Counted from the stretch's first letter, positions 11,498-36,773 are shown. The stretch: DNA of 64,000 bases from a virus (IMGVR_UViG_3300042010_000129:1-64000); one strand, 5' to 3'. A program made the numbers and translations. The notes: generated by a model not told the origin, from the sequence alone.

Positions 11498-13603
11498 ATG
11501 GCTGAAAAGAAAGTGAAACCCAAGGCGAAGGCTGATCCAGCCGTCGAAGGGAAAAAGCTCAAGAAAACGAAAGTTGCTGAAGGCGTGGAAAAAACCACCA
11601 AAAAGAAATCAGCATCGCAGGAAGATTTCACGATCCACGAAGGTCTAGCGGGTATCCGTGCGAAACCTTCCATGTACCTTGGCGAGCAAGGCGCGCCGAT
11701 GGCTTACCGCTGCCTGAAAGAAGGCGTGGATAACTGCTACGACGAACACATTGCCGGTCGCAACAAAGTAATCGAAGTTATTCTGGATTACGACGCCGGT
11801 TGCTACATCGTGGCTGACCAAGCGGGCGGCATTCCTACCGATTTCATGAAGCTGAAATCTGGTGAGAAAATTTCGATCATGACCGCCGCGTATACCAAAA
11901 CGCACGCAGGCGCAAAATTCAACGACAAGGCTTATAAAACTTCGGCAGGTACTCACGGTATCGGTATGTCCGCAGTTAACGCCGTGTCTGAGCGCATGCG
12001 TGTGTGGACAACGTACAACGGCAAGCTGGCGACACAAACGTACAGCAAAGGCGAAATCGTTCCGGGGCCGAAAAAAGATTTGCATCCGTACATCGTCAAG
12101 GCGGTGGACAAGGATGTAATGGGCCACCTGAAAGACAAGCTGCAAAAATACGGAACCATCGTCGCAATCGAACTGGATCAGACCGTCGTTTCCATCAACG
12201 CGAAAGCCGGTAAACTTCCGAAGACTTTCGAAGTTGCAGAACCGAACGCCGCTGAAGTTGGAATGTGGCTGAACAACGTTGCGATGCTCAACCCCGGTCT
12301 GGAAATTCGTTTCTCCACGATCCGCAAGGGCAAACGCAAAGACGAACTTTTCCTGAACAAAAAGGATCTGGCGTTCGTACCGAAAAACATGTGTGAATTG
12401 CGCGACCTCACACCGCAGGGCAAGACGTTCATTTTCAAAAGCGACAACATCACGTGCGCGCTGGTTTGGTCTGACCACACCGACGCCGATAACTTCCTGA
12501 CATTCGTGAACACTTCGCCAACCGTAGACGGTGGCTGGCACGTAACGGGTTTCACCGCTGCACTTTCCAAAGCCGTGAAAAAACACGTGCCGGAAAAGAA
12601 ACCAGCGAAAGGAAAAGGCAAGTCGCAAGGTTACACCGGCTCCGACCTGCTGATCGGCCTGACGGGCATGTTCGACTGGCGTATGCACGGCGCTGCGTAC
12701 ACGTCGCAGGTAAAAGACAAACTCAGTTCGAAAGTGGACAAAGAAGTCGAAGACATTATGTTCCCGGCTTTCGACAAATATTTCACCGACAACCCGAAAG
12801 TAGCGAAAGACATTATCAAGCGCGCCTTGATCATGAACAAAGGCCGTGAAGAATTGGCCGCTGTCGTGAAATCCATGGCCGACGTGAAGAAACAAGGCAA
12901 GGGCACACTGCCTGTCAAACTCGCACAGTCGCCACACTGCAAAGCGTGGGAACGTGAATTGTTTGTGGTGGAAGGGGATTCGGCAAAAGGCCCATCGGTT
13001 GACGCCCGCGACACGCACTATCAGGAAGTTTTGGCCGCTGGTGGTAAACCACTCAACGCCCTGAAAGCGCCGATTGCAAAAATCATCACGCACAAAGATA
13101 TTTCGGCATTCCTGATTGCCATCGGCGTCGATCTGAAATCGCTTGACCCGAAAGCAGAACGCCCGAAACTCAGCACCGAAAAATTGCGGATCAAATCCGT
13201 TCTGTTGCTGGTTGACCCTGACCCGGACGGCGGTCACATTGCGGTTCTTTATCTGGCCGTGATTTATCGTTTGCTTCCGGATCTGTTCAAAGAAGGCCGC
13301 GTGTTCTGCGTACAGGCGCCGCTTTATGCTGCGCTGGATTCGAAAGGTGCGCTTTACGGTGGCATGACCCACGCCGAGTGCCGTGGTGCTGCGCCGAAAT
13401 CTGTAAAGGATCAGGACATTGTGCGTATCAAAGGTTGGGGGGAAGTTGGCCCGGAATACATCGGCCCGATTGCTTTCGATCCAAAATATCGCAAGCTGAT
13501 TCAAATCAACCCGTTCGCATCTGCTGCTGACGAACAGTGGTTCCGCGCCGTAGTTTCTGAAGACGCTGTGAACCGCCGTAAACTTCTCGGCCTTGAGGAT
13601 TAA
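11498..13603 (+). CDS. gyrB: Type II DNA topoisomerase subunit B (GyrB/ParE-like)
   Basis: GHKL ATPase motifs (EGVDNCYDE, DQAGGIP, HAGAKF, GTHGIG); TOPRIM VEGDSA and DPDPDG. Confidence 0.95.
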   Translation: MAEKKVKPKAKADPAVEGKKLKKTKVAEGVEKTTKKKSASQEDFTIHEGLAGIRAKPSMYLGEQGAPMAYRCLKEGVDNCYDEHIAGRNKVIEVILDYDAGCYIVADQAGGIPTDFMKLKSGEKISIMTAAYTKTHAGAKFNDKAYKTSAGTHGIGMSAVNAVSERMRVWTTYNGKLATQTYSKGEIVPGPKKDLHPYIVKAVDKDVMGHLKDKLQKYGTIVAIELDQTVVSINAKAGKLPKTFEVAEPNAAEVGMWLNNVAMLNPGLEIRFSTIRKGKRKDELFLNKKDLAFVPKNMCELRDLTPQGKTFIFKSDNITCALVWSDHTDADNFLTFVNTSPTVDGGWHVTGFTAALSKAVKKHVPEKKPAKGKGKSQGYTGSDLLIGLTGMFDWRMHGAAYTSQVKDKLSSKVDKEVEDIMFPAFDKYFTDNPKVAKDIIKRALIMNKGREELAAVVKSMADVKKQGKGTLPVKLAQSPHCKAWERELFVVEGDSAKGPSVDARDTHYQEVLAAGGKPLNALKAPIAKIITHKDISAFLIAIGVDLKSLDPKAERPKLSTEKLRIKSVLLLVDPDPDGGHIAVLYLAVIYRLLPDLFKEGRVFCVQAPLYAALDSKGALYGGMTHAECRGAAPKSVKDQDIVRIKGWGEVGPEYIGPIAFDPKYRKLIQINPFASAADEQWFRAVVSEDAVNRRKLLGLED

Positions 13604-13606
13604 AAA

Positions 13607-13909
13607 ATGCAAACCGAAATTACTTTGCAGCGCCTGCAACAAATGGTTGTGGACGCGCAGCGCAACATCGAACAAAACCTGATGCCAGAAATACGCATGC
13701 GCAGCACTGACCCACGCGGCCCGCTGCCATCGTTCCCGAACCACACCGCAAGCGCCTGTCTGGATTCGCTGGAAAAACTCGCAGAGATTCACAAAGGCTA
13801 CGTGAAATTCCTCGAAGAAAACCACGTGATGTTTGGCGAAGACCAGTGGAAACGCCTCGAAGCCGCGATGGACGAACTCGGCCTCGAATACCCGGAGGCG
13901 CAAGCTTAA
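13607..13909 (+). CDS. Hypothetical protein between the topoisomerase subunits, 100 aa
   Basis: Clean ORF abutting both neighbours. Confidence 0.75.
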   Translation: MQTEITLQRLQQMVVDAQRNIEQNLMPEIRMRSTDPRGPLPSFPNHTASACLDSLEKLAEIHKGYVKFLEENHVMFGEDQWKRLEAAMDELGLEYPEAQA

Positions 13910-15502
13910 ATGGCGAAGGTAAAAACGAAAGAAGTAGCGAAGGTTAAGAAATCTTCGCTCACGAAAATGAGCAAGACGGAAGTAGCGAAATCGCCGGTGA
14001 TTAAATTCGTCACCGTCGCACGCGAAACCAAAATGCAAACCATCAACGAATTTTCTGATGGCGCCCTGCATATCTACGGTTCCTATGTGGTGGAAGATCG
14101 GGCCGTTCCCGACTTCCGCGATGGTCTGAAACCAGTTCACCGCGCCGTGTTGTGGGCACTCGATGGCCTCGGTCTGCACCACCACAAAGGTTTCAAGAAA
14201 TCGGCGCGTACAGTCGGTGACGCAATCGGTAAATATCACCCGCACGGTGACAGCGCCTGTTATGGCGCAATGGTGACGATTGCAAACAGCAACCCGCCGC
14301 TGGTATGGGGCCAAGGTGGCTGGGGCAAACCGGATGGCACGACCGCATCCGCGTATCGTTATACCGAAGCAAAGAAATCGAAATTTGCTGATACCTTTTT
14401 GCTCGATCAGCAATATCTGAAAGTTGTTCCGATGGAAAACAACTTTTCGAACGATGAAAAACTTCCGCTGTATCTGCCTGCACTGCTGCCGACTCTGCTT
14501 TTCCTTACATCGACGCCGCCCCCGGCCTACGGTGTGAAAGTCGGCAACCCTGCGTTCTCTGTCGCCACGGTTTCGAAAGTCGTGGTCGATATGCTCAACG
14601 GCAAAACGTACACCGCGAAGAAATTGGCGGAAACGTTGAAAATTGTTCACCCGTTCGGCTGCATCGACGTTTCGTCTGACGCGGCAATCGAAGACCTCAT
14701 GGCGACCGGTAAAGGTTCCGTGCAGTACATGCCGCTGATTGATTACGATATCGAAAAGCGCATCATTCGAATTCGTTCGTTCTGTCCGGGCACGCTGACC
14801 GGCGAAGAGGGTTTGGACAAAGCGTTGCAAAAGCTGGCGAACATCGACGGCGTGAAAAACGCGTCGAATACTTCCGGCAAAAAGAACAAACACGCTGGCC
14901 CATACGGCGCGCATCTGGAAGTGGCTTGTCCGAAAAACATGGACGAAGAATCTTTCGATGAAGTCTGCGCGAAAGTAGACAAAGCAGTGAAAAGTTCTGT
15001 CGCTTACCGACTGGGCATCACGATCCGGAAATCCGGGGAAGAAACCAACCGCTTCAAATACGTGAACTACGTCGAATATTTCACGGCGTGGATCAAGTAC
15101 CGGGTCAAGCTCGAAGAACGTCTGATCGACTTCCTGCTGGCGAAGGCTGCGCGTGAACTGCACTTGAACGAAGTGTATTTGTACGCGGTGCAGAACCGTG
15201 AAAAATTGCTGAAAGCGTTGCCGAAAGTTCTGGCGTCGAAAACCCCGGCTGAAGTGCTGGCAAAGACTCTGAAAATGCCGGTGCCTGATGCGGAAATCAT
15301 CCTTGAACGGAAAGTGCGCCAATTGGCAGCGCTGGAAGAATCCGACCTGAAGGCCAAGATCAAAGGCATCAAGGGCGAAATCAAGGATTTGAAATCCGAC
15401 CAGAAAGAACCGGGCAAGCGTGCGGCGCGTGACACAACCGAGCGCGTGAAAAACTACCTGAAGAAACCTGACCCGACTGTTTCGGGTATCAAGGTTGAGT
15501 GA
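13910..15502 (+). CDS. gyrA: Type II DNA topoisomerase subunit A (GyrA/ParC-like, no C-terminal pinwheel)
   Basis: DRAVPDFRDGLKPVHR, KKSARTVGDAIGKYHPHGD, SAYRYTE (catalytic Tyr); only 530 aa. Confidence 0.95.
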   Translation: MAKVKTKEVAKVKKSSLTKMSKTEVAKSPVIKFVTVARETKMQTINEFSDGALHIYGSYVVEDRAVPDFRDGLKPVHRAVLWALDGLGLHHHKGFKKSARTVGDAIGKYHPHGDSACYGAMVTIANSNPPLVWGQGGWGKPDGTTASAYRYTEAKKSKFADTFLLDQQYLKVVPMENNFSNDEKLPLYLPALLPTLLFLTSTPPPAYGVKVGNPAFSVATVSKVVVDMLNGKTYTAKKLAETLKIVHPFGCIDVSSDAAIEDLMATGKGSVQYMPLIDYDIEKRIIRIRSFCPGTLTGEEGLDKALQKLANIDGVKNASNTSGKKNKHAGPYGAHLEVACPKNMDEESFDEVCAKVDKAVKSSVAYRLGITIRKSGEETNRFKYVNYVEYFTAWIKYRVKLEERLIDFLLAKAARELHLNEVYLYAVQNREKLLKALPKVLASKTPAEVLAKTLKMPVPDAEIILERKVRQLAALEESDLKAKIKGIKGEIKDLKSDQKEPGKRAARDTTERVKNYLKKPDPTVSGIKVE

Positions 15503-18136: not shown

Positions 18137-18721
18137 ATGACCGAAGTAGCCGTAGTAAAACTGTCGAAAAACGAAACCGCCGCTGTCAAAGCCGTTGCCG
18201 CTGCTGCCAAAACTCTGGACGGCCTGAAAGCCGACCTGAAAACCGCGCAGAACGTTGTTCGCTCGAACGCCAAGCTGGCTCTGACCACCGCGCCGAAAGT
18301 CGTGAGCAATCTGCAAAAGAACGTCGGTTCCGTCGTTGAAACTCTGCAACAGGCCGTACTGGCCGCGACCACCGAACTGAACGACGCGAAAGCCGCGCTG
18401 ACCAACGTTCGTTCGACCGAAAAAGCAGAAGCCGCGCAGAAAGCAAAAGACGCCAAAGCCAAACAACGCGAAGCCGACAAAGCAGCCGCTGCCAAAACCA
18501 AAGCAGCCAATGCCAAGCCTGCTGCCGCCGCTGTCGTTGCCGCACCGGTCGTGAAAGCTCCGAAAGCAAAAGCTGTTGCTGCCCCGGCTGCTGCCAAAGC
18601 TCCGAAAGCTGCAAAAGCCGCTGCCCCGGTTGCCAAAGCTCCGAAAGCTGCCAAGGCGCCGAAAGCTGCCGCTGTTGTTGCTGCGCCGAAAGCCAAAGCT
18701 GCGAAAGCTGCAAAGGCATAA
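18137..18721 (+). CDS. Histone H1-like Ala/Lys/Pro-rich protein with N-terminal coiled coil
   Basis: C-terminal KAPKAAKA repeats; highly biased codons suggest high expression. Confidence 0.85.
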   Translation: MTEVAVVKLSKNETAAVKAVAAAAKTLDGLKADLKTAQNVVRSNAKLALTTAPKVVSNLQKNVGSVVETLQQAVLAATTELNDAKAALTNVRSTEKAEAAQKAKDAKAKQREADKAAAAKTKAANAKPAAAAVVAAPVVKAPKAKAVAAPAAAKAPKAAKAAAPVAKAPKAAKAPKAAAVVAAPKAKAAKAAKA

Positions 18722-19821: not shown

Positions 19822-21717
19822 TTGGAAATGACTATTCTTAAAGGCCAGACCGTAAACGTTAACCACGGCAAGAAAGGCGTATTCAAAGAGACGGTGAAAA
19901 CCGTTCTGCGTAATGGCACCGTTCGCACCGAGGAAGGTTCCGAGTTCAACACCGCCGACATGTACAACAAAGGCAAAGGCAAATTCGTTGACCTGAAAGG
20001 CGGCGTCGTGAAGAAAACCACCGCTGCCGCTGCACCTGCTGCAAAAGCCGAACGTCCTGCACCGCCGACCATCACTTTCAAAGAACTGGAAGAGAAAGCG
20101 CGCAAAATCAACGGCATCGAAATCGAAAGCCTGAAGCGCAAAGAAGGCACCGTGGTTCTGGCTGACGGTTCGACCGTTGCAATCGGTGACATTTCCCGCA
20201 AGGGCAAAGGTTACGGTGCCGACGTTGTGACCCCTGCGCCGAAAGCTGGCAAGAAAACCGCCGCTGTTAAAGCTGCAACCGAAAAAGCCCCTGTGAAAAC
20301 TTCCGGCGTTAAGCCAGCTGCAAAAACTGCTGCCCCGGCAAAAACTGGCGGCGCAGTGAAGAAAGTCAAAGCGGCCCCGGCTGACGACAACGCATTCGAC
20401 GAAGGCGCGCTGTATGGCCCGGCTGGTCAATACGAAACTTCCGACGTTCGCGGCAAGGTGATCGACTTCAACGGCGACGACGTGAAAGTGGTTAAAACCT
20501 TTTCGTCCGGTCGTTGCGTTCTGGAAAGCGGCGACGAATTCCAAGCCGACGAAATTCGCAAACGTCATGATGGCCGTTTCTGCGTGTACTCCGATGAATA
20601 CATCGACGAACTGAAAGAACTGCACGAACAAGCCAACACCCGTGCGAAGGCAATTCAAAAGGCCAAAGACACGCCGAAGCCTGTAACGTCGCGCAGCTTC
20701 AAAAAGAACGTGACTCAAGTTCTGGTCGGCAAGAAAATGCAAACCGTTGCACGCGTTCTGACCACTGGCGTTGTCGTCATGGATTCCGGGTTGCGCATTG
20801 CAATCGCTGACATTGAACAGCAAGGCGCAAAACTGGTTTACGGCGGTGCTGCATCGACCAACCAGAAAGCCGGTGGCGCACTTCCGAAAACCCGCGAAGT
20901 TCCGCCGTTCGAGAAAAAGATCGTTCGCGTTTCTGAATTCGACGACGACACCGCGCAAGACATTTGCGATTTGCTCGAAGAAAACGTGCGCAAAATCATG
21001 GCGGGCGAATACGACGTTCAACTGGTTTCGTCGTTCGCCGGTCGCGGCACCGAATTCTGCACCGTTGCATTCAGCTTCGCGATTGCCGACGCTGACCCGG
21101 CGCGCATTCAGGAAATGGTTGCACGTCAACGCGCTGAAAACTTCGCTGATGATGAAAACAGCGATACCGACGCGCACCAGCTGACTCCGAATGCCGACGA
21201 CATTCCTGAAGAGGAAGAAGAGCAGGAAGAGGAAGAGGAACAGGAAGAAGAGGAAGAGCAGGAAGAGGAAGAAGAACAGGAAGAGGAAGAGGAACAGGAA
21301 GAGGAAGAGGAACAGGAAGAGGAAGAAGAACTGGAAGAGGAAGAACTGGAAGAGGAAGAGCAAGAAGATTTCCCCGACAGCCAGACTTTCGCACCTGCTG
21401 AAACTTCGTTCCCTATCGACACCTCGGAACTGGTCGGTGATGCTTCGGCCCGTATGGCGAAAATCGTTCCTACTGCCAAATATCAAGGCGCAATGCGTAA
21501 AGCCGCTTTGGCATGGTATGAATCGCAAGATGCGTACACCAATTTCGGTTATGCCATTGAACCGGGTTCGACTGTCGAAGATGCAGGTCAAACCTACCTG
21601 TTCATCGGCCTGCGCAATGATGTTGTCGGCCTGATCAACGTTGCGAGCGAAACCGTTCGTTCGGTGGACTTCGAAAAATTCGTTGAGATTTGCGAAGCCA
21701 ACGGCATCGAAATCTAA
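19822..21717 (+). CDS. Multidomain protein, 631 aa: four SH3/KOW-like repeats, K/A linkers, EEEEEQ tract
   Basis: GGAG SD; repeated V..v...G.vv...G..f...DI units; acidic repeat. Confidence 0.9.
   Translation: MEMTILKGQTVNVNHGKKGVFKETVKTVLRNGTVRTEEGSEFNTADMYNKGKGKFVDLKGGVVKKTTAAAAPAAKAERPAPPTITFKELEEKARKINGIEIESLKRKEGTVVLADGSTVAIGDISRKGKGYGADVVTPAPKAGKKTAAVKAATEKAPVKTSGVKPAAKTAAPAKTGGAVKKVKAAPADDNAFDEGALYGPAGQYETSDVRGKVIDFNGDDVKVVKTFSSGRCVLESGDEFQADEIRKRHDGRFCVYSDEYIDELKELHEQANTRAKAIQKAKDTPKPVTSRSFKKNVTQVLVGKKMQTVARVLTTGVVVMDSGLRIAIADIEQQGAKLVYGGAASTNQKAGGALPKTREVPPFEKKIVRVSEFDDDTAQDICDLLEENVRKIMAGEYDVQLVSSFAGRGTEFCTVAFSFAIADADPARIQEMVARQRAENFADDENSDTDAHQLTPNADDIPEEEEEQEEEEEQEEEEEQEEEEEQEEEEEQEEEEEQEEEEELEEEELEEEEQEDFPDSQTFAPAETSFPIDTSELVGDASARMAKIVPTAKYQGAMRKAALAWYESQDAYTNFGYAIEPGSTVEDAGQTYLFIGLRNDVVGLINVASETVRSVDFEKFVEICEANGIEI
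21208..21363 (+). repeat. Coding tandem repeat (EEEEEQ)x6 plus three degenerate units
   Basis: 18-nt units such as gaagaggaagaagagcag. Confidence 0.9.
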
Positions 21718-21784
21718 TCGCGCCTGTTCCCACGCGGGGGAGCAATAAGAATCCCCCGCAAATTTAATTCCGAGGTAAAAGATC

Positions 21785-22939
21785 ATGAACGAATTTTTCA
21801 GCCGCTTGGTAGGATCTGCACACGTTGCAATCGCTGCCTTTTATCAGAGCCTGTTTTCGCAAGCTCTCAGTACCTCCGCCGATGAATTGGCAGACTGGTA
21901 CAAACTCGATCCGACCGAAGTCGATCTGGAAGACGGCGCAGAAATTTACGCCAAACGTATTTCGCTGCCGATTTGGGATTTGGTAAATCCTGATCATGCG
22001 GCGGAAATTGCCAGTGACATGATGCTGGAACTCGAATCCAAGCACGATATGCATTTGTGCAGTTACACCGGCGACGGCGAATTCATCGTTTACATCACCA
22101 ACGAAGAAATCGAACTCGACGCTTTGCGTTTGGCTTTCGACGACCTCGAAGAACTGGAAGAGGAAGAGGAAGAACTCGAAGAACTCGACGGTTCCGAACT
22201 TCAGCAACAACCGGAAAGCGGTCGCGTTCTTTCGATGGTTCCACGCATCGACCAATCGGCCCCGGCCCCGGCTGCGCCAGCCGTTGAAGTCGAAGCGGAT
22301 TTCCCCGAGGAAGATTTCCCCGAGGAACCAGAACCAACCGAACAGGCCCCGGTAGCCGCGCAAACCGCGCCTGAGCAAATCGAAGACGCCGATCTGGTAG
22401 AGGAAGAGCCTTTGCCCGAGGAAACGCCTGTAAACGAAGCACAGGCCGCGCCAGCACCAACCGAAACCAACGCGCAAGCCGATGCACTGGCGAACGCATT
22501 GAACGGTGAACCTGTACACGCACAGGAACCGCTGACCGAATCGGAAACCGTGGCAGTCATTGCCGAACGTTCCGACCAGCAGCAACCAGCAGCAGAACCG
22601 GCGCCAATCGACGACGTTGTTGATACCGGCCCGGTAAAAGAATCGCCGGAAATCATTGCGGCAATTCACGCGGAAAAAATGCAGCAACTGATGGGCATGT
22701 TACCGTCTGACACCATGTCTGAAGTTGATGAAAATACCGGCGTGCTGTCCCTGATGTACAGTCGTGACGTGAACGGCGAAAACGTGGATTACATCCGCAA
22801 CATTCGCCTTGTAAATGAAAACTTCCAAAACATTCGTTACGTGGACGTTTTCTATGTCGAAGACGAAGCGGGTAAAGTGCTGCACCGCACGTCGAGCGTA
22901 CAGAGCATTATCCAGCACTTGGATAACCTGAACGCGTAA
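21785..22939 (+). CDS. Acidic protein with long E/P/A-rich disordered middle, 384 aa
   Basis: GAGG SD; composition. Confidence 0.9.
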   Translation: MNEFFSRLVGSAHVAIAAFYQSLFSQALSTSADELADWYKLDPTEVDLEDGAEIYAKRISLPIWDLVNPDHAAEIASDMMLELESKHDMHLCSYTGDGEFIVYITNEEIELDALRLAFDDLEELEEEEEELEELDGSELQQQPESGRVLSMVPRIDQSAPAPAAPAVEVEADFPEEDFPEEPEPTEQAPVAAQTAPEQIEDADLVEEEPLPEETPVNEAQAAPAPTETNAQADALANALNGEPVHAQEPLTESETVAVIAERSDQQQPAAEPAPIDDVVDTGPVKESPEIIAAIHAEKMQQLMGMLPSDTMSEVDENTGVLSLMYSRDVNGENVDYIRNIRLVNENFQNIRYVDVFYVEDEAGKVLHRTSSVQSIIQHLDNLNA

Positions 22940-22944
22940 CGCGA

Positions 22945-22955
22945 AACTGTAAATC
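22945..22955 (+). promoter_or_regulatory. AACTGTAAATC motif
   Basis: Intergenic copy, immediately followed by a terminator hairpin. Confidence 0.45.
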
Positions 22956-22960
22956 AGAAT

Positions 22961-22991
22961 GGAAGGGCTACCCTGTGGCCCTTCCTTTTTT
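22961..22991 (+). terminator. Intrinsic terminator
   Basis: ggaagggc ... gcccttcc followed by T6. Confidence 0.8.
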
Positions 22992-23011
22992 CATTTCTGG
23001 AGCCTGTGCAT

Positions 23012-23467
23012 ATGATTCACCGCAAACGCAGCGAAAAAATCGAAAACATTTACATGGCGTTGGGCATGCTGGAAAAAGATCCGCGCCGTGAAAAATTCGA
23101 AATGGACATGACCCTCACTTCCCTAATCGGCCCGAACATCACGTTGAAAACTTCGCACTACGAAGCGATTATCACCGTTCCGTTCGAAGGGCAGATTGTC
23201 ATTCTCGAAATCGACGGGGCTAAGCAGCGCTTCGCTGATTACGCCGCGTTCCTCGAATTCTTCCTGCGCTCTTTGGAGCCTGCCCGCCCGGCTACCCTTG
23301 CCCTTGCTGCTGTAATGACCGATGGCACCCGCTTGGGCAACTCAGTGGCGTTTGAGCGCAACGGCGTGCGCTACCTGTGCGTTGAAAAAGACGGCCAGTT
23401 CGAAGTGCGTTACAACAACCAAATGATGGTAATGCCGCACGACGACATTGCCGCCGTTTTCGGCTGA
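23012..23467 (+). CDS. Hypothetical protein, ~151 aa
   Basis: GGAG upstream; start 23006 or 23012. Confidence 0.8.
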   Translation: MIHRKRSEKIENIYMALGMLEKDPRREKFEMDMTLTSLIGPNITLKTSHYEAIITVPFEGQIVILEIDGAKQRFADYAAFLEFFLRSLEPARPATLALAAVMTDGTRLGNSVAFERNGVRYLCVEKDGQFEVRYNNQMMVMPHDDIAAVFG

Positions 23468-23484
23468 TCAACCGAGGGATAAAG

Positions 23485-23787
23485 ATGGAACTGGCAGAAT
23501 TTGTTTCGCACGTTTTGCAATTTGCAGAACATGACGAAATTGCAATTACGAACCATCCCCTTGATATGCATCCTTTCGAGGCTGCTATCGCCCTCAACAG
23601 CGCGTTGGCCCTTGTGCCCGGTGGTGAAGCCGTAAAAGTTTTCGGCACCACTGGCGACACAATTATTATCGTGCGCGTGTCGGCCATTCCTGAATATCGC
23701 GAAGCCATTGAATTCGGTTGCGATAAACGACACGCTGAAGAAATCAAACAAATTTGCGAGCGCCCGAACAATGCAGCTACTGACTAG
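23485..23787 (+). CDS. Hypothetical protein, 100 aa
   Basis: GAGGGA SD. Confidence 0.8.
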   Translation: MELAEFVSHVLQFAEHDEIAITNHPLDMHPFEAAIALNSALALVPGGEAVKVFGTTGDTIIIVRVSAIPEYREAIEFGCDKRHAEEIKQICERPNNAATD

Positions 23788-25057
23788 CACTCTCCATCAC
23801 CTGTACGAAAAAGGAATTCTCAAAACGTGCGAACCAACGCATGATTTCGAGTCATATTCGTATGAGTACATGGGCCGACTGGTTAAGCAGCCCGTTACGG
23901 TTGGTACGCGTATGAAAAAATCAGACCTGTTGAATATCGTGCGCAGTGCGTGCGATGGAAACCTCGAAGACATGGCGACGGTTGCCATGCTTTACAACGT
24001 AGGCTTTGGCCTGCCGTTTGATCGTGATCGCGCAGTAGCGTGGATGCAATATTCGTTGGTGAACCCATCGAGCCAGTTCGACGCCGAATGTGAGTACGCG
24101 ATTAAATGCGCAGAGGAAGCGCCGGACGTTTCCTATCCGGACTCGCTGATTTATCCGTGTCTGGATATCGTGCGTAAAATTCACGATCATAAAAACACTG
24201 GCACCATTCGCAAAGGCTGTTCGGTTCTGCCGCGCTTTAAAGGCGTGCGCGTGTATTTGATTTATCGCACGCAGCCCGGCGTAACGCCGCATCTGTACGC
24301 AGGCTTTTATCACGACAAGGAGAATTATTTCCTTGCGCTGGATAAACTGGTTGCGTTGGGTGCGCCGCGCTATTTCGGTGAACTCCGGGGCCGCGTAACG
24401 ATTCCGGAATACACACCGTTCGGCCACAATGCGATGTATGTAATTGCTGGCACCGTTTACATTCCCGAATCGAAACGGAATGGCGACAAGATTAGCAAAG
24501 TGTTCAAAGAATTCCTGACGGATGAAACGCCGCAGCTGACACCGCAACACTTCAGCGTTGACGACACTGTTGCCATGCTGGAAGAGGCGCAGAAAACTGT
24601 AAATACTATTACACGGTCACAGAGCCGATTGGCGGAACAAGGTAAGGCCATTCCTTTGGAGTCGCTGCAACAATTGCAGAAGGCAAACAAACGAGTGGAT
24701 CAGCTTACGGCGCAGGTTAAGAACGCCAACCCGGAAGCCGAGTATCAAGCCTATCTCAAATCGCGCCCTGAAGCCCGTCTGCGCTTCGTTGCGACTGAAA
24801 TGTACCGCTGGAACCGGGACGGACTTAAAACCGTTCCAATGGGACGCCAGCAGCACCAGCAAATGCAATCGTTAGGGTTTCACAGCCTCACGCATCCAGC
24901 CCTCGAATTCGTTGGTCATGTCGCAGACACAACCGACGTGCGTGAAACTGTAAATAAATTCGAGAAGGCTATGGACGCAAAGGTATCTGCCTTAATCATT
25001 CAACCCGGCCCCGAATCGACGGTTCGGTTTGTAGACGTTACGAGGATTGATCTGTGA
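23771..25057 (+). CDS. SEL1-like repeat plus degenerate NAD-ligase adenylation-like domain, ~428 aa
   Basis: LYNVGFGLPFDRDRAVAWMQYS (SEL1-like); PRFKGVR, VIAGTVYIP, RLRFVA, QSLGF and VSALIIQ parallel LigA motifs. Confidence 0.8.
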   Translation: MQLLTSTLHHLYEKGILKTCEPTHDFESYSYEYMGRLVKQPVTVGTRMKKSDLLNIVRSACDGNLEDMATVAMLYNVGFGLPFDRDRAVAWMQYSLVNPSSQFDAECEYAIKCAEEAPDVSYPDSLIYPCLDIVRKIHDHKNTGTIRKGCSVLPRFKGVRVYLIYRTQPGVTPHLYAGFYHDKENYFLALDKLVALGAPRYFGELRGRVTIPEYTPFGHNAMYVIAGTVYIPESKRNGDKISKVFKEFLTDETPQLTPQHFSVDDTVAMLEEAQKTVNTITRSQSRLAEQGKAIPLESLQQLQKANKRVDQLTAQVKNANPEAEYQAYLKSRPEARLRFVATEMYRWNRDGLKTVPMGRQQHQQMQSLGFHSLTHPALEFVGHVADTTDVRETVNKFEKAMDAKVSALIIQPGPESTVRFVDVTRIDL

Positions 25058-25992
25058 GCAATGACATTTCGTACAACGAAGCACATGAGCAACAATTGAA
25101 ATCGAGCGAGCGCCAATTGGGCATCGCTACCGAACCGGAAAACGTTACACGCAACAAAGAAAATATTCCGGTTAAAGTTGCCGGTGAATTCCCGGTGCGG
25201 ATTGTGCCGCGTGTTGAAGTGGTATTCGGCGCCGTGCTGAATACTGTAAATGAAGTAATAGAACAGCACAAAACGCTGACGCCTTTGATCGGCCACGACA
25301 ACGGCGTAGTGGAAGAGGAAGACAATTCGGTTTCCCTCTACAGTCCGCTTTCGCGCAAATACAACGGCGCAGCATTGCAGCCGCTGGAATCGCTTTACGA
25401 ATTCCTTGCAGCCCTTGAGCTTGAGCAATATTTGATTGTCTGCGAAGACTCGGTATTGCAGCAGCGCATTCAAGGTCTGATCGACACCCTGCATTCGCAA
25501 TTGCAGGATACGTTCGGTGGCCCGGCCTTCGAACAACACGGCCTCGATTTTTCCGTGGCCCGCAGTGATTATTTCTCTACCAGCGTCACGCAGTACACGG
25601 TGGAAGAGAAAACTGTAAATAATATTCATCTGGTGATTCGTGTGTACATTCACGCGGCCAGCTTGACGAATACCCCTGACGATCCTGTCGAAGCTATTAA
25701 CAGCGCATTCGGTGCGCCATACCGGCAAGTGATCAAAAACTTCGCGACTGCAACCAAGATCAAAACTCAGATTGCAGTTGCATTTGATGTTTCTAATTTC
25801 ACTGTACGGCCTAACCTTCTGACTCTGTTCACCGCGCTTTGCGCAGAACCGGGCGCACAAGCGGACGCTGTAAACAAAGACGATCATATCGACGCAAACG
25901 TAATTGTTTCCGTCGCGCTGACAAACCCAAACGCCAAGGTGAAGACTGCCCCGAAAAAGGGTGTGGCACCGGCAAAACGCAAAGGTAGTTAA
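25054..25992 (+). CDS. Hypothetical protein, 312 aa
   Basis: GTGA overlap; contains two ACTGTAAAT copies. Confidence 0.8.
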   Translation: MSNDISYNEAHEQQLKSSERQLGIATEPENVTRNKENIPVKVAGEFPVRIVPRVEVVFGAVLNTVNEVIEQHKTLTPLIGHDNGVVEEEDNSVSLYSPLSRKYNGAALQPLESLYEFLAALELEQYLIVCEDSVLQQRIQGLIDTLHSQLQDTFGGPAFEQHGLDFSVARSDYFSTSVTQYTVEEKTVNNIHLVIRVYIHAASLTNTPDDPVEAINSAFGAPYRQVIKNFATATKIKTQIAVAFDVSNFTVRPNLLTLFTALCAEPGAQADAVNKDDHIDANVIVSVALTNPNAKVKTAPKKGVAPAKRKGS

Positions 25993-25997
25993 ATCTC

Positions 25998-26555
25998 ATG
26001 GCAAAGCCAGAAAAAACCGTTAAAGCAAAAGCACGCACCAAAGTTTCCCGTCTCGACAAAGCCCTGCGCAAGCTGACCGGCACCAGCGCCAAAACCCCGT
26101 TCAGCATGAAAACCGGCGTGTTCACCGTGACCGGTTTCAGCGTTGTTCCTGCCGAAGTTCCGGGCTACCTGATCGACCGCACCGCGACCCACACCATCTA
26201 TCGCCACAAGGCTACCAGCGCCTCGAAGAAAATGGTTGTGTCCGTGTTCGCAAACTCCGACGTTCTGCAACTGCTGGGCGGCAAGGAAGGCGGTAGCGTT
26301 ACCGTTCGCCGTCGTTCCGCTTTCACCAGCGCAACCGGCACCCTGAAATTCGACGGCACTTCGGTAATCGTTACCGACGCTGACGGCGGCGTTGCCGTAT
26401 TCGATCTGGCCGCTGGCGATTACGAAATCAAAGCCGCTGACACCGAAGGTTCGCAAACTTCCGGTCGTGGCGTGAAATCGTCTTCCGACGAAGGCAAGAA
26501 GAAAAAGAAAGTCGTCGATATCAAAGAAGGCGGCAAGAAAAAAGCAAAAAAGTAA
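25998..26555 (+). CDS. Hypothetical protein with Lys-rich termini, 185 aa
   Basis: Full ORF, strong codon bias. Confidence 0.85.
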   Translation: MAKPEKTVKAKARTKVSRLDKALRKLTGTSAKTPFSMKTGVFTVTGFSVVPAEVPGYLIDRTATHTIYRHKATSASKKMVVSVFANSDVLQLLGGKEGGSVTVRRRSAFTSATGTLKFDGTSVIVTDADGGVAVFDLAAGDYEIKAADTEGSQTSGRGVKSSSDEGKKKKKVVDIKEGGKKKAKK

Positions 26556-26612
26556 CTGACACCCGGTACATGGGCGACCTCGACTGAGTGCGCCCGTGAC
26601 CACCTCGCAGTA

Positions 26613-26660
26613 AACTGTAAATACACTGTACAAGATGTGCAGTGCAGAAAACTGTAAATC
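26613..26660 (+). promoter_or_regulatory. Tandem AACTGTAAAT motifs (26613-26623, 26650-26660)
   Basis: Two copies 37 nt apart upstream of the poly-Glu gene. Confidence 0.65.
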
Positions 26661-26698
26661 TCTTTCAGCAACATCAATCAATATATCTGGAGTTATTC

Positions 26699-27229
26699 AT
26701 GGCTAAGCCAGCAAAAAAATCCGCCGCCAAATCCAAGCCAGCACCGAAGAGCAAGAAAAAGGCAGTGCCGGAAATCTCCGCTGACGACCTGAACCTGATC
26801 AACATGGATGTGCTGTCGCAAATCCTGATCGCGTTCCAAGACAAAGGCTTCGAAACCATCGAAGACGTGATCGGCGCCATCCAGCAACTGATCGAAAGCG
26901 AAGAGGAAGAGGAAGAGGAAGAGGAAGAGGAAGAGGAAGAGGAAGAGGAAGAGGAAGAGGAAGAGGAAGAGGAAGAGGAAGAGGAAGAAGAGGAAGAGGA
27001 AGAGGAAGAGGAAGAGGAAGAGGAAGAGGAAGAGGAAGAGGAAGAAGAGGAAGAGGAAGAAGAGGAAGAAGAGGAAGAGGAAGAGGAAGAGGAAGAGGAA
27101 GAGGAAGAGGAAGAGGAAGAGGAAGAGGAAGAAGAGGAAGAGGAAGAGGAAGAGGAAGAAGAGGAAGAGGAAGAGGAAGAGGAAGAGGAAGAGGAAGAAG
27201 AGGAAGAGGAAGAAGACGACGACGAATAA
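26699..27229 (+). CDS. Poly-glutamate protein, 176 aa (basic N-tip, helical core, E105 tail)
   Basis: GGAG SD before MAKPAKKS; 105 consecutive Glu codons; terminator follows. Confidence 0.85.
   Translation: MAKPAKKSAAKSKPAPKSKKKAVPEISADDLNLINMDVLSQILIAFQDKGFETIEDVIGAIQQLIESEEEEEEEEEEEEEEEEEEEEEEEEEEEEEEEEEEEEEEEEEEEEEEEEEEEEEEEEEEEEEEEEEEEEEEEEEEEEEEEEEEEEEEEEEEEEEEEEEEEEEEEEEDDDE
26900..27214 (+). repeat. (GAAGAG)n purine-only coding microsatellite
   Basis: 315 nt of only GAA/GAG codons with occasional GAAGAAGAG interruptions. Confidence 0.95.
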
Positions 27230-27293
27230 TCGTCTCTGATCTTCTGATCTGAACCGCTTCGAAATTCTCCGACTTCTTTCGATCTGAGAATTC

Positions 27294-27325
27294 AAGAAAC
27301 CCGGTAAAATCGCCGGGTTTCTTTT
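27294..27325 (+). terminator. Intrinsic terminator
   Basis: aagaaacccgg ... ccgggtttctttt. Confidence 0.85.
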
Positions 27326-27369
27326 CGCCTAAAATCGGCATTCTGAAAATTTAAGGGAACACGAACATC

Positions 27370-35516: not shown

Positions 35517-36773
35517 ATGGCGACCGCCGTTTTTAAAGGCATGGGCAGCATCCGCACCAACAGTGGCAAGGGTGATTCGCTCCGCTTGGACGAAGTTGTT
35601 GATATCATCCAGTGGCCGAAAAACAAATATTTCCTGTTCCGCATTTTGCCGATCATGCCGCTGCAAGTGCGTCAGGTCTGGATCAAACTGTGGGCCGGTG
35701 GCAAGGGCAAAGAAAAACGCGAAGTGAACATTCCGCGTTACGCTATCGACTTCGATCCGAACGATCCGGAAACCCCGAAAAAAGGCGTGAAGTGCCCGTA
35801 CATGGCGCTGGCCGACAAGTTCAAAGGCCAGAAAGAAAAGCCGGTGCGTGCATCCGACTTCTGGTTGTTCAACGTGATCGACCGTGACATGCAGGAAGAA
35901 GGCCCGCCGCGTAAAGCGTCGAAGCCAACCAAGGAAGAAAAGAATTCCGGTTTCAAGGATATCAATTCTGAAACTTGGACTCCGGTTCGCGTTGCCCGTC
36001 TGACCATGACTTCGATCAACCGACTGCAAGAATTGTCGGAAGAAAACAAAATCAAGTCGAAGAAAACCGGCAAAACCGCGCAGTACGACGTATCCGATGC
36101 GAAGTTCGGTTTCGATACCAAACTGAAATTCAAACCGGACGCAGCGGGCACCGACAAATATACCATCGACAAAGCGGACGGCCCTACTCCGCTGAGCGAC
36201 GAAGAGCAAGGCTATCTGACGTGGAACCTCACTGAAGAACTTCTGGACGCCACCGGTCGCATGACCGAAAAGGCTGCGAAGGAAGACGTCAAGCGTATGG
36301 AAATCATCGGCGGCGAAGAACTCGACGATGACGACGATGAAGACGAAGACGAAAAGCCGAAGAAAAAGAAAGGCAAATCCACTTCGCTCGACGACGATGA
36401 CGACGAAGACGAAAAGCCGAAGAAAAAGAAAAAGAAATCTTCCATCGACGATGACGATGATGAAGACGAAAAACCGAAAAAGAAAAAGAAGTCCAAGTCC
36501 ATCGACGACGATGATGACGAAGACGAAAAGCCGAAGAAAAAGAAAAAGTCTTCGGACAAAGACGCCAAGTCTTCCAAGGTGAAAAAGAAGTCGAAGTCGG
36601 ACGACGATGACGAAGACGAAAAGCCGAAGAAGAAAAAGAAAGCCAAGGAAGAAGAAGCTCCGAAGAAAAAGAAAAAATCTTCGGACAAGGAAGAGAAAGG
36701 CGGCGCCAAAAAGAAAGTGAAGAAAGCTGACAAGAAAGGCAGCGGCAAGAAAAAGAACGCGTGGGATGACTAA
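35517..36773 (+). CDS. gp32-like single-stranded DNA-binding protein with block-charged tail
   Basis: FRILP, KCP, FNVIDR and D..FGFD..LKF...YT pattern of phage OB-fold SSBs; directly upstream of the recombinase; acidic-aromatic C-tip AWDD. Confidence 0.65.
   Translation: MATAVFKGMGSIRTNSGKGDSLRLDEVVDIIQWPKNKYFLFRILPIMPLQVRQVWIKLWAGGKGKEKREVNIPRYAIDFDPNDPETPKKGVKCPYMALADKFKGQKEKPVRASDFWLFNVIDRDMQEEGPPRKASKPTKEEKNSGFKDINSETWTPVRVARLTMTSINRLQELSEENKIKSKKTGKTAQYDVSDAKFGFDTKLKFKPDAAGTDKYTIDKADGPTPLSDEEQGYLTWNLTEELLDATGRMTEKAAKEDVKRMEIIGGEELDDDDDEDEDEKPKKKKGKSTSLDDDDDEDEKPKKKKKKSSIDDDDDEDEKPKKKKKSKSIDDDDDEDEKPKKKKKSSDKDAKSSKVKKKSKSDDDDEDEKPKKKKKAKEEEAPKKKKKSSDKEEKGGAKKKVKKADKKGSGKKKNAWDD
36324..36647 (+). 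repeat. Five DDDDEDEKPKKKKK units in the SSB tail
   Basis: Near-identical gacgaagacgaaaagccgaagaaaaagaa units. Confidence 0.9.

Follow-up and report, generated by a model that had tools for sequence, protein, structure and literature searches.

What does a bacteriophage gain from a protein whose last hundred or so residues are all acidic? This question is raised by a gene on the viral contig IMGVR_UViG_3300042010_000129, of which a stretch of 64,000 nucleotides (positions 1-64000, here called the window) was analysed. Translation of positions 26699-27229 gives a polyglutamate (polyE) protein in which Ser67 is followed by glutamate at all of residues 68-172 (105 in a row), then by D-D-D-E and a TAA stop codon. 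The part of the protein that precedes the tail is almost neutral (+10/-9). The glutamate run is encoded by 57 GAA and 48 GAG codons, and the DNA of the tract is an imperfect GAAGAG microsatellite (26900-27213, Tandem Repeats Finder score 502) with a longest duplicated k-mer of 92 bp. The opposite strand of the tract has open reading frames (ORFs), poly-F/L and poly-L/P, which arise from the repeat as by-products. A sequence-only reading of the locus had described a run of 105 Glu behind a helical core of about 45 residues, closed by DDDE and a stop codon. This matches the translation exactly, and the observation is confirmed. The ribosome binding site, upstream motifs and terminator named in that reading were all found, as a GGAG, two copies of the motif ACTGTAAAT and a 12-bp hairpin followed by a T-run. 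Long polyE runs are rare in viral contigs: when 2.9 million IMG/VR contigs were scanned for at least 50 GAR codons in a row (R, A or G), only 49 stretches came up. The features of the locus are collected in Table 1.

Table 1. Sequence features at and around the polyE gene (positions in the window).
Feature	Position	Strand	Remarks
Four intragenic promoter motifs, ACTGTAAAT	24596, 24947, 25243, 25612 (24596-25620)	+	Inside two upstream genes
Upstream gene, phrog_22271	25998-26555	+	Lysine-rich C-terminal tail; inside the promoter cluster; in all relatives
Two tandem proximal promoter motifs	26614-26622, 26651-26659	+	About -84 and -47 from the ATG; conserved in L003, L004, L008 and L010
Shine-Dalgarno sequence, GGAG	26689-26692	+	6-nt spacer to the ATG; GGAG before the ATG in all orthologues
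PolyE protein gene	26699-27229	+	176 aa, net charge about -108; from translation and syntenic orthologues
Basic arm, residues 1-22	26699-26764	+	Rich in Lys/Ala/Pro/Ser; predicted to be disordered, predicted local distance difference test (pLDDT) score <50
Helix-helix-loop-helix core, residues 23-67, conserved	26765-26899	+	AlphaFold2 (AF2) helices 28-33, 36-47 and from 54 onward; ratio of non-synonymous to synonymous substitution rates (dN/dS); hydrophobic count
Acidic tail	26900-27226	+	105 Glu (26900-27214) and D-D-D-E (27215-27226)
Intrinsic-terminator-like hairpin, then T-run	27294-27330	+	12-bp stem; z -4.3 for the 121-nt stretch; kept in most orthologues
K-rich neighbour gene, phrog_36478	27370-27975	+	N-terminal coiled coil (about residues 1-58); tail with KPAKK-type repeats, about 125 aa (65 K/R, 37 D/E)

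Among 50,697 phage records, the only relatives of the window were two jumbo phages of Pseudomonas, Lu11 (280 kb) and HRDY3 (314 kb), with 73-75% nucleotide identity over parts of a 6-kb query. The window belongs to a jumbo Pseudomonas phage related to both. At least seven studies contributed metagenomes (rhizosphere, plant, food, soil) that contain near-identical DNA. Both isolate phages carry a syntenic orthologue of the polyE gene, annotated as 'hypothetical protein' in each case: gp161 of Lu11 (AFH14695.1) with a tail of 99 residues and XDJ15127.1 of HRDY3 with a tail of 109 residues. The two proteins share with the polyE protein the locus, the basic arm, the helical core (57-70% core identity) and the acidic tail. 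Both promoter motifs and the terminator hairpin are present in Lu11 as well, and HRDY3 keeps the hairpin. The tail of Lu11 differs from that of the window in being a mixture of E and D.

The sequence-only reading had proposed a comparison of tract length in relatives. We found 11 complete orthologues, besides copies truncated by contig ends, at the same locus in related phage genomes and contigs. Ten of the IMG/VR contigs used here were fetched via the upstream gene and further ones via the downstream gene, and all of them carry the polyE gene. Complete tails have 109 (window), 105, 58, 100, 94, 108, 83, 104, 84, 99, 109 and 93 residues; the tails, made purely of D and E, thus mostly measure 83-109 residues, and the C-terminus stays DD(D)E or D. 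The order of GAA and GAG codons within the tract has nothing in common between lineages; the codon array is therefore remodelled continually, presumably by slippage. In three lineages the tail is mixed E/D with GAC and GAT codons interspersed (Lu11, 99 residues; L011, 104; L029, 93). The tail DNA of Lu11 and L011 has a purine fraction of 0.85-0.87, and its 6-nt periodic runs are far shorter. As these E/D lineages keep a length of about 100 residues, selection acts on the charge and length of the protein, and not on pure polyglutamate or on a DNA structure. A role of the homopurine tract at the DNA level, as H-DNA or as a replication element, was rejected, since the E/D lineages break the purine run with GAC and GAT codons.

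The same lineages bear on the explanation that the tract is an assembly error, or a homopurine H-DNA element in an ORF that is not translated; an assembly artefact or a lack of translation had been named as what could overturn the sequence-only reading. The tract does interrupt assembly: in each of four independent runs the Logan contigs end at its edges (26888 and 27236), several IMG/VR contigs end inside it, and the exact length of 105 Glu rests on assembly. Yet the mixed E/D versions, which are neither homopurine nor highly repetitive, keep the frame, the length and the DD(D)E-stop. Three lineages encode it in this less repetitive DNA, so an acidic stretch about 100 residues long is no artefact of assembling a homopurine microsatellite. 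The gene is present in two isolate genomes and in many independent metagenomes, its Shine-Dalgarno sequence, promoters and terminator are conserved, and dN/dS of the core against its relatives (0.25-0.66) indicates moderate purifying selection. We therefore regard an artefact or a non-coding tract as extremely improbable. The figure of 105 Glu in the window is an assembly value, while about 100 acidic residues are corroborated by the orthologues; the shortest tails (58, 83 and 84) may be collapsed assemblies. In the Lu11-like clade the polyE tract acts as an assembler breakpoint of otherwise complete genomes, as in the 314-kb IMG/VR contig 3300027269_000160 (L019, L023, L074, L076), both ends of which lie inside the tract.

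When, and how strongly, is such a protein made? The promoter motif ACTGTAAAT, which usually sits within AAAACTGTAAATA, occurs 16 times in the window against 0.28 copies expected by chance. In Lu11 the motif occurs 36 times and its reversed control never; the annotation of that genome calls the equivalent sites 'putative middle/late promoter'. Six of the copies in the window are clustered in 2.1 kb (24596-26659) and feed the 25998 gene and the polyE gene. An identical layout of four plus two motifs is present in Lu11 (122330-124347), where it takes up 6 of the 36 copies in the genome. The four intragenic copies always read as T-V-N in the coding frame. Further copies lie upstream of the gene for a single-stranded DNA-binding protein (SSB; copy at 35450) and of Tad3 (copy at 34599), and in Lu11 the motif adjoins thymidylate synthase, topoisomerase and polymerase genes. 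It was not found in the baseplate/tail-fibre block of Lu11 (175-214 kb, + strand) or in the sheath/tube block. No sigma-70-like promoter of the host type was detected in 25900-28200. The promoter class thus points to a polyE gene that would be transcribed strongly together with genes of DNA metabolism, being neither immediate-early nor among the inspected virion genes. In two RNA libraries the only contigs on 21000-31000 were the 5' end of the polyE gene and the K-rich neighbour gene; this is a weak hint of expression, as the runs had been chosen for containing the polyE gene and contigs cannot measure a level. Considering the six promoter motifs in 2.1 kb, the terminator, and the sharing of the motif with replication genes, high expression timed with replication is likely, in amounts that are stoichiometric rather than catalytic.

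The N-terminal part gives some indication of how the tail is carried. The basic arm and core were aligned across 9 (A1) and 8 (A2) sequences of the family. AF2, run with the family alignment, left the basic arm disordered and gave two helices, a loop and a third helix that continues into the tail. In the model of the full protein the polyE stretch was drawn as one long helix with high pLDDT. We did not accept this helix as a structure, since polyglutamate is expected to be disordered at neutral pH; the tail is probably disordered. The core is probably an oligomerisation or docking module, because its 19 hydrophobic residues out of 45 exceed what a monomeric mini-domain can bury.

Searches for relatives of the protein led back to the same phages. 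The polyE protein found HRDY3 (E 9e-12) and Lu11 (E 1e-7) by tblastn, while a homology search with residues 1-67 gave zero matches. A profile search of 1.84 billion representative proteins added one further fragment of the polyE family and no other relative. Pfam gave no match even at E 10, PHROGs no family match, and a sequence profile search of the PDB nothing under E 1.5. Foldseek found no match for the N-terminal model; with VIA-align the best Z was 3.1, and the weak top fold matches of the core were helix pairs of ribbon-helix-helix proteins (Z <=3.1). The ESM Atlas returned only long-helix look-alikes for the polyE protein, and no match for the upstream 25998 protein. Despite the predicted helix-loop-helix layout, no SAP/HeH motif was recognised, as neither Pfam (E 10) nor the fold matches contained SAP, LEM or Rho_N. 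No published description of polyE, polyglutamate or glutamate-rich phage proteins, or of HRDY3, was found in the literature covered, which did not include the Lu11 genome paper, and none of the papers found names the Lu11 or the HRDY3 orthologue. The polyE protein family is undescribed and confined to one clade.

The gene next to polyE suggests a partner for the tail. In every genome the directly following gene encodes the K-rich neighbour, a protein with a net charge of about +28, and the two genes share their restriction to a single clade. The stretch between the polyE gene and the K-rich gene does not recur as a motif in the window, and the K-rich gene lacks ACTGTAAAT. The K-rich neighbour and its orthologues end in a conserved acidic-aromatic tip, K-[DE]-[YF]-D-[DE]-F-[ED] (DFDEFED in the window); by analogy to the docking tip of SSBs, this tip may recruit a replisome partner. 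The polyE gene lies in the replication module. The SSB gene (35517-36773; phrog_15004, E 1.7e-121) is separate from the polyE gene, and the window also carries the subunits of a topoisomerase II (11498-15502) and a RecA/UvsX-like gene. The C-terminal tail of the SSB, about 150 aa long, has five blocks of about eight Asp/Glu each followed by a Lys run and ends in NAWDD. A coiled-coil protein with an AKP-repeat tail, AlgP/H1-like, is encoded at 18137-18721, and the 631-aa protein encoded at 19822-21717 contains a second GAAGAG-type repeat (21208-21368) that reads as (E5-6 Q)x7. The replication region is thus unusually rich in highly charged disordered segments.

Similar arrangements were seen outside the clade. 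Eleven of the 49 stretches of the IMG/VR scan came from the Lu11-like clade and about ten from metagenome-assembled genomes of giant viruses. Six other contigs, from unrelated phages, were picked by eye and not blind; on each of them the polyE gene has replication genes for neighbours (DnaB-like helicase, DNA polymerase, topoisomerase II or SbcC). PHROG identifies two of the polyE proteins as SSBs (L067, L079), with polyE runs of 50-61 residues in the SSB tails, and one polyE protein (L048) is sigma-factor-like. Lysine-rich blocks flank the polyE in most of the listed polyE proteins. These cases suggest that extreme acidic tracts, lysine-rich blocks and the replication of phage DNA are connected.

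Taking these data together, the function is narrowed to a charge-based action during replication. We propose, with a probability of roughly 0.4, that the polyE protein serves as an abundant trans-acting polyanion that buffers lysine-rich DNA-binding proteins, or competes with DNA for them. This view is based on a tail that conserves only charge and length, on the probable abundance and the replication timing, on the K-rich neighbour and on the precedent of SSB tails. The protein would be made abundantly in the replication phase of infection, with the helical core, as an oligomerisation or docking module, and the short lysine-rich arm carrying the tail. With about 100 residues and a charge of about -100, roughly that of 50 bp of DNA, the tail would act by plain electrostatics, standing in for nucleic acid, and would bind DNA-binding proteins by their lysine-rich tails. 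The product of the neighbouring gene is the foremost candidate; the SSB, whose tail carries charge blocks, the AKP-rich 18137 protein and the product of the 25998 gene are further candidate clients. As an outcome, the clients may be kept soluble or off the wrong nucleic acids, their grip on DNA may be tuned, or they may be co-condensed at replication sites.

The nearest known phage counterpart of the tail is the acidic tail of SSBs. The acidic disordered C-terminal tails of T4 gp32 (A-domain), T7 gp2.5 and E. coli SSB stand in for single-stranded DNA and govern protein contacts. They resemble the polyE tail in being acidic, C-terminal and encoded in the replication module. Unlike these SSBs, the polyE protein lacks an oligonucleotide/oligosaccharide-binding (OB) or Zn-finger core and has no SSB match in PHROG or Pfam. 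Its tail is 4-10 times longer, ends in DDDE without an aromatic tip, and would act in trans; the protein may be seen as a free-standing version of the tails that phage SSBs bear in cis. A second group for comparison comes from eukaryotes. The polyacidic chaperones prothymosin-alpha, nucleoplasmin, ANP32 and SET, which are largely disordered, serve histones and linker histone H1 and use their charge to bind lysine-rich, H1-like partners. In the phage, a protein with a charge of about -100 is encoded beside an H1-like protein with KPAKK repeats, and the polyE protein could be a functional analogue of prothymosin-alpha or nucleoplasmin acting on linker histones. It differs from the four proteins in having a true homopolymer tail and a bacterial host, and in lacking any sequence or fold relation to them; domains of histone-chaperone families (prothymosin-alpha, nucleoplasmin, NAP/SET) gave no Pfam match and no structural match.

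The menu offered by the sequence-only reading (nucleic-acid mimic, chaperone, condensate scaffold, or cation/polyamine sink) is supported in part, as to the general class, a functional polyanion that acts on basic partners. This is backed by the conserved gene, its place in the replication module, the tolerance of E-to-D exchange at a length of about 100, the K-rich neighbour that is always adjacent, and the promoter class shared with the SSB gene; no result discriminates between chaperone, condensate and sink. The specific analogy to Ocr-like anti-restriction is disfavoured. Ocr and ArdA are also acidic phage proteins, and they compete with DNA, but they are folded, carry surface charges that imitate B-DNA, and are synthesised as soon as infection has begun. 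The polyE protein shows no homology or fold match to Ocr, and its homopolymer is not a shaped, DNA-like surface. Judged by its promoters only, the gene belongs to the phage promoter class of replication genes and not to a host-type early class.

Several points weigh against a polyanion that serves the lysine-rich proteins of the phage. Prediction of a complex between the core with the start of the tail and the N-terminal half of the neighbour scored 0.00, which is no verdict; fuzzy charge complexes are outside the scope of such models. Adjacency alone is weak: a terminator separates the two genes and the neighbour has no promoter motif of its own, so that co-regulation is not established. The same promoter class precedes the anti-defence gene Tad3, and a role directed at the host therefore fits equally well. 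The six replication-module loci from unrelated phages were not a blind selection, and the runs whose contigs gave the RNA evidence had been picked by means of the polyE gene. Finally, translation of 100 or more acidic residues often aborts in E. coli systems (PMC11162784), and a full-length product is therefore assumed here. A more specific version of the proposal, in which the polyE protein, the adjacent H1-like protein and the SSB with its charge blocks form a complex coacervate that serves as a membrane-less replication compartment or as a DNA-handling phase, is unlikely in our estimate.

A host-directed decoy is possible, if on the unlikely side. Here the polyanion would mimic DNA, RNA or polyphosphate and soak up basic proteins of the host, freeing or protecting the phage DNA; nucleoid proteins (HU, MvaT, H1-like AlgP/PhaF), RNA-binding proteins and DNA-sensing defence or repair nucleases are conceivable targets. 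The lysine-rich, H1-like AlgP of Pseudomonas does bind a polyanion that is not a nucleic acid, on polyphosphate granules (PMC9239181). Genes for a Tad2-like protein and for Tad3 lie 5.5-8 kb away, the latter with the same promoter motif, the dense promoters suit a stoichiometric sponge, and the exchange of E and D is tolerated as in non-specific charge mimicry. On the other hand, the protein lacks likeness to any known mimic, ArdA included, it would come too late for the restriction of incoming DNA unless packaged, as there is no host-type early promoter in 25900-28200, and its conserved adjacency to a lysine-rich protein of the phage favours a phage client. A further view is that of a virion-associated polyanion, either a component like the prohead core or scaffold or an internal protein that is expelled or injected with the DNA. 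Heads of the T4 type hold acidic scaffold and internal peptides, and in some orthologues the basic arm is followed by an A-x-E site reminiscent of those cut by prohead proteases. This site was rejected as a cleavage signal of the family, since it is not conserved and most orthologues have Q instead of E. The gene lies in the replication module and not in a structural one, and its promoter motif is missing from the inspected tail and baseplate modules of Lu11, which makes a virion role very unlikely.

Two other alternatives invoke the small-molecule and protein chemistry of the host. The roughly 100 carboxylates of each chain could buffer polyamines or Mg2+, for instance against the polyamine accumulation by which Pseudomonas blocks phage replication. 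Polyamine build-up after entry of phage DNA indeed disturbs phage replication in P. aeruginosa (PMC9992862), and the dense promoter cluster, the replication timing and the tolerance of E/D exchange would all suit such a sink. Lu11 has an annotated glutathionylspermidine synthase (222038-223426; L015), which may bear on polyamine handling in this phage group. We nevertheless consider a cation sink quite unlikely: the helical core, the basic arm and the lysine-rich neighbour would all be unneeded, and the capacity per chain is small compared to millimolar pools of polyamines and Mg2+ unless the protein is extremely abundant. The other alternative is interference with the polyglutamate metabolism of the host. 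The hosts of the Lu11-like clade are Pseudomonas, in which RimK adds poly-alpha-glutamate to the ribosomal protein RpsF (S6) and RimB removes it (PMC12239564). The polyE protein could be a decoy substrate or an inhibitor of the RimB protease, or could mimic glutamylated S6 and alter ribosome behaviour. The S6 tail resembles the polyE tail in being alpha-linked polyglutamate at a protein C-terminus in the Pseudomonas cytoplasm, and differs in being added after translation and trimmed by RimB, while the polyE tail is encoded in the genome, is about 100 residues long and is sometimes mixed E/D. The related RloA protease cuts reporters with 8-10 consecutive Glu, and bioinformatic searches by the authors gave no genome-encoded polyE candidates (PMC12239564); the run of 105 Glu, which the phage protein would present in the host cytoplasm, is far longer than the 8 consecutive Glu reported to be needed. 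However, half of the Glu are replaced by Asp in three lineages, and RloA left a mixed DDDDEEEDDD reporter uncut (PMC12239564), so that recognition of pure polyE seems not to be required. The E/D lineages may alternatively have evolved to escape cleavage. Interference of this kind is very unlikely.

Some further genes of the window lie amid the replication genes: a PL7 alginate lyase (30309-31022), a protein with a Tad2-like domain (32718-33338) and Tad3 (34822-35448), the last two being anti-Thoeris genes. Only region 2 was detected in a sigma factor (33592-34605), the gene end of which overlaps a copy of the promoter motif. The ORF at 21785-22939 has the position of Lu11 gp155, annotated as 'putative polyphosphate kinase'; orthology is by gene order only, and as the ORF gave no Pfam match at E 10, this label is unsupported here.

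Whatever its role, the polyE protein poses a problem to the ribosome. Nascent chains rich in acidic residues destabilise the ribosome in E. coli systems, and more than half of the product of a GFP-20D construct ended as abortive peptidyl-tRNA; YbiT and EttA relieve this abortion, and a preceding nascent chain that fills the exit tunnel also helps (PMC11162784; bioRxiv 10.1101/2021.02.02.429294). E. coli itself has no run of 20 acidic residues, and in vitro such a run aborts translation for over half of the product (PMC11162784). The position of the tail behind an N-terminal part of 67 residues agrees with the tunnel-filling rule; during most of the translation of the tract, however, the exit tunnel holds only Glu. 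No tRNA genes were found in the window, in Lu11, in HRDY3 or in a complete 308-kb relative, and no ABC-F-type ATPase was found in the phages, so that no aid from the phage for polyE translation was seen. The gene is natural material for studying how bacterial ribosomes pass 105 Glu codons when the phage supplies neither tRNAs nor ABC-F factors.

Bacterial proteomes are nearly devoid of long acidic homopolymers, and the longest low-complexity region in 102 phage proteomes has 115 aa (PMC6821194); the Lu11-like clade keeps about 100 acidic residues under selection. The polyE protein is also a candidate natural ligand of Pseudomonas polyglutamate proteases. If the proposed mechanism is true, these phages would manage lysine-rich DNA-binding proteins with protein polyanions, as is so far known from eukaryotic chromatin, and would provide a simple system of only two genes in which to study, in bacteria, disordered complexes or condensates driven by charge. 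Should the coacervate exist, it would give bacterial viruses their first counterpart of the prothymosin-alpha/histone H1 system, and the recurrence of polyE with polyK among replication proteins of unrelated phages would point to an unrecognised principle that holds generally for phage replication factories. Its acidic component would, besides, be the first natural genome-encoded polyE chain that faces RimB and RimK of Pseudomonas, and an extreme test of ribosome tolerance.

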